In this document: positions 11,573 to 11,824 of the stretch, one piece after another
Position numbering within the stretch: the first letter of the stretch is position 1
Layout: the number at the start of each line of letters is the position of its first letter
Source of the DNA: Escherichia coli
GTDB taxonomy: Bacteria > Pseudomonadota > Gammaproteobacteria > Enterobacterales > Enterobacteriaceae
Length of the DNA stretch: 17,427 nt
Assembly: GCF_003334305.1 (NCBI RefSeq)
Contig: NZ_QOWS01000040.1
Reading direction: 5' to 3' (one strand)
Translations under genes and position numbers: made by a program
The notes under the pieces: model-generated
What the model was told of the DNA's origin: nothing
Seen by the model: the letters and a program-made list of their open reading frames with translations, nothing else
Databases searched by the model: none

Positions 11573-11824
11573 GAGATAACCTCAAAAGCCCGTATTATAC
11601 ATCAGATTCAACCAATTAGAGGCATCACCCTTTCCTACATTCGTAGGACTTTGATTACATATAGCAAGGGTTAATTCTTATATACATAGAATAAATTAGG
11701 AATATAATGAATTTTATCGTGACGACCTTATTTATAATTAATTTATATCGTCAGAGAAATTAGTGTCCACAATATGAAGTCTTACAAAGAGATTCTATGA
11801 TTTAAAAAAAATAAGAGCCAGCTT

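Follow-up and report, generated by a model that had tools for sequence, protein, structure and literature searches.

Inducible decarboxylase/antiporter operons are generally regulator-dependent. In IS1- and Tn9-type rearrangements the element that remains carries no direct repeats, and a missing target-site duplication is the expected sign of IS1 intramolecular transposition, of adjacent deletion or of recombination between IS copies (PMC9330008 section 5.2.1; PMC11708052). IS1 is also known for fusion (hybrid) promoters, in which the -35 element lies in the IS end and the -10 element in the flank, according to Prentki et al. (1986) in the form in which that work is cited in PMC9330008.

The window, that is, the whole stretch of 17,427 nucleotides analysed here, matches an Escherichia coli chromosomal island. 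Besides fecIRABCDE and debris of IS3 and IS1, this island holds a cluster of three genes, which encode a basic amino acid/polyamine antiporter of 489 aa, a decarboxylase of the Orn/Lys/Arg type (789 aa) and another antiporter of 499 aa. A small palindrome forms the start of the AT-rich leader upstream of this antiporter-decarboxylase-antiporter cluster, where an IS1-family element ends. We consider it quite probable that this palindrome is a chance dyad without dedicated function, located in a lineage-specific AT-rich leader at a rearranged IS1 junction. The features to which the argument refers are as follows.

10865..11629, minus strand: IS1-family element of 765 bp, a frameshifted pseudogene (comparison with intact copies; RefSeq)
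11630..11824, plus strand: leader of 195 bp and 27% GC, from the IS1 end to the antiporter ATG; E. coli/Shigella lineage-specific (alignment tests)
11633..11648, no strand assigned: palindrome TCCTAC-attc-GTAGGA, perfect 6-4-6 (sequence reading)
11681..11708, plus strand: best sigma-70-like site, TATACA-16-TATAAT, 10/12 matches (consensus match only)
11825..13294, plus strand: first basic amino acid/polyamine antiporter, 489 aa (ORF and RefSeq annotation)

The IS1 junction and the palindrome

The ends of the IS1 element were set by means of E. coli plasmids on which the same variant is present in intact 766-bp copies; the plasmid copy L002, flanked by the 8-bp direct repeat cttttcct, starts with GGTAGTG and ends in GGCATCACC. 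RefSeq labels the element in the window 'IS1 family transposase, frameshifted' on the minus strand, and its insA-proximal end points at the antiporter. One T is missing from the T-run at 10956-10958, and this 1-bp deletion makes the element a pseudogene. Strain J3 carries an intact 766-bp IS1 copy with identical junctions (L082 3107-3801), and the junctions are therefore older than the inactivation of IS1. An IS1 end beyond 11629 was considered, since plasmid megablast matches ran 4-7 bases further, and was dropped: the matches come from two independent junctions only, whose flanks (cttttcct and gtttact) resemble ctttcct by chance.

With the IS1 end fixed at 11629, the palindrome starts 4 bp on from the last IS1 base, with the three bases ctt in between (gaggcatcacc / ctt TCCTAC attc GTAGGA ctttgattaca, where the slash marks the IS1 end). 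The first-pass annotation had described a palindrome with arms TCCTAC and GTAGGA within 4 bp of an inferred IS1 end, at the start of an AT-rich leader, and all of this description is borne out: the 16 bases TCCTACATTCGTAGGA form two perfect 6-bp arms around a 4-nt loop, the distance is correct and the leader is AT-rich. No further outward pairing extends the arms, whose GC content is 50%, and the centres of the two half-sites are spaced 10 bp apart, about one helical turn, a geometry of operator type. Reading the palindrome as a part of IS1 was rejected, as similarity to other copies of this variant stops right after ATCACC; the palindrome sequence is likewise absent from the opposite IS1 end, where the flank is tcaaatctc.

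No target-site duplication surrounds the element, the outer flank (tcaaatctc) and the inner flank (ctttcctac) being unrelated over 9 bp. Because of this missing duplication, the junction beside the palindrome would be a rearrangement breakpoint and not a simple insertion site. Intact ends combined with unrelated 9-bp flanks are what other IS1 junctions without a target-site duplication display; in contrast to those, the event here is not reconstructable, since every E. coli genome with the cluster has this IS1 as well. The locus also resembles the IS1 fusion promoters in having an outward-facing IS1 end directly upstream of a gene cluster; unlike them, it yielded no acceptable hybrid -35/-10 pair across the junction in a promoter scan. 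Classical IS1 reads TTGGCA at a place where this variant reads TTAGAG.

Several further observations concern the surroundings of the element. The 8-mer CTTTGATT flanks IS1 on both sides, at 10849-10856 and 11649-11656; it was rejected as a target duplication on account of its unequal distances to the IS ends (9 bp and 20 bp), and the pair is probably due to chance in AT-rich DNA. The left flank of IS1 (10546-10864) is conserved along with IS1 in 403 E. coli genomes, and in strain 98212 an IS66-like tnpA is annotated at its left edge. From fecE to the cluster, the region is a patchwork of IS3, IS66-like and IS1 fragments together with a truncated alcohol dehydrogenase gene. A second IS1-family copy, inverted and of another subtype, follows 3 bp after the window ends on the right (L001 18871-19638), and its insA-proximal end is likewise directed toward the cluster. 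The cluster thus lies between two inverted IS1-family elements of differing subtypes, like the interior of a composite transposon, and neither the inner ends nor the outer ends of this pair show a target-site duplication.

Chance frequency and lineage specificity

Chance alone yields a short inverted repeat of this kind about every few hundred bases. The window contains 71 perfect ones that have 6-bp arms and a loop of 0-10, where first-order Markov simulations give 52.7 +/- 9.5, and when the 195-nt leader is shuffled with its dinucleotides preserved, 49% of the shuffles hold at least one 6-bp-arm repeat with a loop of 3-8. The exact 6-4-6 geometry is found 11 times, mostly within coding regions (fecA, fecB, the decarboxylase or the second antiporter). 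The Markov expectation for this geometry is 4.5 +/- 2.0, a mild excess in a comparison that was made after several loop sizes had been viewed. In its arms and loop, in a density like that of random sequence and in having copies of the same geometry across coding sequence, the palindrome matches chance short inverted repeats in bacterial DNA, and it differs from them solely in sitting 3 bp from an IS end. A repeat starting at most 10 nt from the boundary appeared in 4% of the leader shuffles, a figure that belongs to a post hoc observation. A second copy in proper position, exact or with up to two arm mismatches, was found neither in the window nor in the 26.5-kb locus L001.

The leader is present in 497 of 5,426 complete E. 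coli genomes (~9%) and is joined to this IS1 in all 497. All of these carriers have one and the same 35-mer across junction and palindrome (100% identity), and it occurs nowhere else in the 5,426 genomes. The palindrome has no variable position and the rest of the leader has 3-4; since the leader varies at so few sites, the invariance of the palindrome is uninformative on constraint. Outside these chromosomes, the leader has no match in the plasmid collection, and a 20-mer over the palindrome has no exact match among JGI metagenome contigs. The protein cluster at 90% identity or above is confined to E. coli/Shigella.

For comparison, we used orthologous clusters that are free of IS elements and have their three genes in the same arrangement; 13 of these, from 89% to 68% protein identity, were examined in detail. 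The clusters retrieved are those listed here with their protein identities and three more loci, one of them Hafnia-type.

Metagenomic contigs L062-L067: 89%
Metagenomic contig L068: 83%
Metagenomic contig L069: 81%
Metagenomic contigs L070/L071: 80%
Klebsiella sp. BIGb0407: 76%
Citrobacter sp. JGM124: 74%
Proteus species: ~68%

TCCTAC-N(0-8)-GTAGGA is absent from every orthologous upstream region that was fetched, and the IS-free upstream regions contain no dyad of any kind at a comparable position. Local alignment of the E. coli leader with the upstream regions of the orthologs stays at the level of shuffled sequence (p = 0.2-0.8). Between E. coli and L062, the leader gives z = -0.3. Identity in this pair reaches 86% and 78% in the two intergenic spacers inside the cluster (z = 28 and 19), 74% over the 87 bp of 3' flank that precede the right-hand IS1 (z = 8) and 88% over the initial 300 bp of coding sequence. 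The comparators are therefore near enough for a fair test, and other pairs of orthologs at 81-90% protein identity still have clearly alignable leaders (z = 5-17). Alignment thus identifies the E. coli leader, palindrome included, as lineage-specific DNA, and this leader appears to have been replaced relative to that of the relatives.

The relatives have a promoter-like motif in common. CTTTAC-N18-TATAnn lies 97-198 bp upstream of the first antiporter in 10 of 10 IS-free enterobacterial-type orthologs, a set that comprises all orthologs examined except the three Proteus loci. The sites, with approximate coordinates derived from ATG offsets where these are given, are as follows.

L062: 5817-5846
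L068: 1450-1479
L069: 4820-4849
L070: 4880-4909
L015: 3609-3638
L023: 3638-3667
L064, L072, L073 and L074: motif also present

A weight matrix built from 8 independent orthologous sites gives genuine sites scores of 8-30 in leave-one-out tests; the best site in the E. coli leader scores -3.9 (p = 0.44 against shuffles), which is not a significant match. As judged by this matrix, the E. coli island is without the motif shared by the relatives examined. Because this motif has been lost and the leader is foreign, regulation of the cluster in E. coli is probably unlike that in the relatives, a point of relevance to work on this accessory decarboxylase system in extraintestinal or commensal E. coli.

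Weighing functional readings of the palindrome

The first-pass annotation had left two options open, an operator for some regulator or a product of chance, and had named conservation upstream of orthologous loci as the check on the former. The frequency statistics favour chance. The operator option fails its own check, the palindrome being missing from all fetched loci and the leader being wholly non-homologous. Since the entire leader is non-homologous, this test shows lineage specificity and is no formal proof against binding by an E. coli protein. On the operator reading, a dimeric regulator of the E. coli host would bind the palindrome and control a promoter at 11681-11708 from about -74.5. 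Such a protein, if of helix-turn-helix type, would use just the perfect dyad and 10-bp half-site spacing seen here; the best sigma-70-like site of the window is downstream of the palindrome, the centre of the palindrome is at roughly a class I activator position, its sequence is invariant in 497 of 497 carriers (of little weight, given the 3-4 variable sites of the leader) and a boundary as close as this one is rare among shuffles, albeit as a post hoc finding. We nevertheless hold a host operator to be unlikely. The palindrome is conserved in no ortholog, it has no second copy within 26.5 kb and chance alone often produces a palindrome as large as this. The cluster has no regulator gene next to it in E. 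coli and none that is conserved at this position in relatives, whose neighbouring genes encode ABC transporters and whose LysR genes at this place are unrelated and not conserved. Within a non-exhaustive set of consensus sequences, IHF, FNR, NarL, ArgR and Fur gave no match over the palindrome, and the sole match was a weak 7/10 CRP-like site at 11644-11659 that covers the right arm only. A full-text literature search for operators with TCCTAC/GTAGGA half-sites returned primers and REP papers and no such operator. Very unlikely, in our estimate, is the more elaborate proposal that an IS1-associated rearrangement replaced the native promoter region (CTTTAC-N18-TATAnn) of a horizontally acquired cluster, and that the palindrome in the new leader would serve as a host-regulator site at about -74.5 on TATACA-16-TATAAT; if true, this would be a case in which an acquired acid-stress or polyamine module had its regulation rewired.

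Two other roles have been weighed. As a weak intrinsic terminator or insulator, the palindrome would form a hairpin, with CUUUGAUU after it, in plus-strand transcripts coming out of IS1 or from farther upstream, and would attenuate read-through into the antiporter operon. It shares with Rho-independent terminators a hairpin and a T-containing tail, and a loose terminator-like scan flagged it; the 6-bp hairpin of the plus-strand RNA is predicted at -7.4 kcal/mol, with z = -3.2 against shuffles of a 41-nt segment, a z-score that is inflated because the segment was picked for its palindrome. The stem has only 6 bp with 3 G-C pairs, and its stability is at the weak end of the range; the U tract is interrupted (tail CUUUGAUUAC, in which a C is followed by no more than 3 U in a row), and a terminator here would have no upstream gene of its own orientation to act on, the IS1 transposase being encoded on the other strand. 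The same scan gives 30 sites in the window, many of which lie in genes, where 18 are expected, and it ranks the palindrome 20th. We consider attenuation quite unlikely. A remnant of the ancestral promoter, with CTTTCC (11630-11635) as a -35-like box, the palindrome as spacer and IS1 abutting, would have E. coli CTTTCC-N18-ATTACA-TATAGCAAG in register with CTTTAC-N18-TATACC-TATAGCAAG of Klebsiella sp. BIGb0407, at a distance to the ATG (-195) close to the -181 to -198 of the nearest relatives. This arrangement is highly improbable: the E. coli site scores -7.6 in the weight matrix, where true sites score 8-30, and the local alignments of the leader remain at chance level. An IS1 placed against an ancestral -35 box thus failed both the weight-matrix and the local-alignment shuffle tests and is close to refuted. 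Among known repeat families, a REP/BIME element, which is multi-copy, G+C-rich and has a GTAG head, was rejected, because the 35-mer is single-copy and, across 5,426 E. coli genomes, restricted to the island; the arms of 50% GC and the lack of any extended palindrome past GTAGGA likewise differ from it. An Rfam search over 10800-12100 returned one chance-level snoRNA match and nothing else.

Beyond its symmetry, the palindrome has nothing positive to indicate a role as operator or attenuator, and annotation as an operator or terminator is unwarranted. A chance dyad at a rearranged junction would fit into the following course of events. Lineage-specific AT-rich leader DNA would have come to abut the IS1-family element through an IS1-associated rearrangement, either adjacent deletion or recombination between IS copies, and the nearness of the palindrome to the IS1 end would be a coincidence. 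A transcript reading out of IS1 across the palindrome could form the weak hairpin of -7.4 kcal/mol, and transcription of the cluster would most probably begin downstream of the palindrome, at TATACA-16-TATAAT.

The leader and its candidate promoter

TATACA-16-TATAAT is the top sigma-70-like match of the entire 17.4-kb window, and its resemblance to the consensus makes it a candidate for an E. coli-specific promoter that serves the cluster. Relative to the transcription start predicted from this site, the centre of the palindrome falls at about -74.5; if the site is a working promoter, the palindrome would be upstream of the transcript. The fold of the whole 201-nt leader is no better than that of shuffled sequences (z = -1.2). 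The leader also contains a small ORF (11707-11763) that would encode MNFIVTTLFIINLYRQRN followed by a stop codon, with AGGA ahead of its ATG; because this ATG overlaps the TATAAT hexamer, the small ORF would lie off any transcript that starts from the TATAAT promoter.
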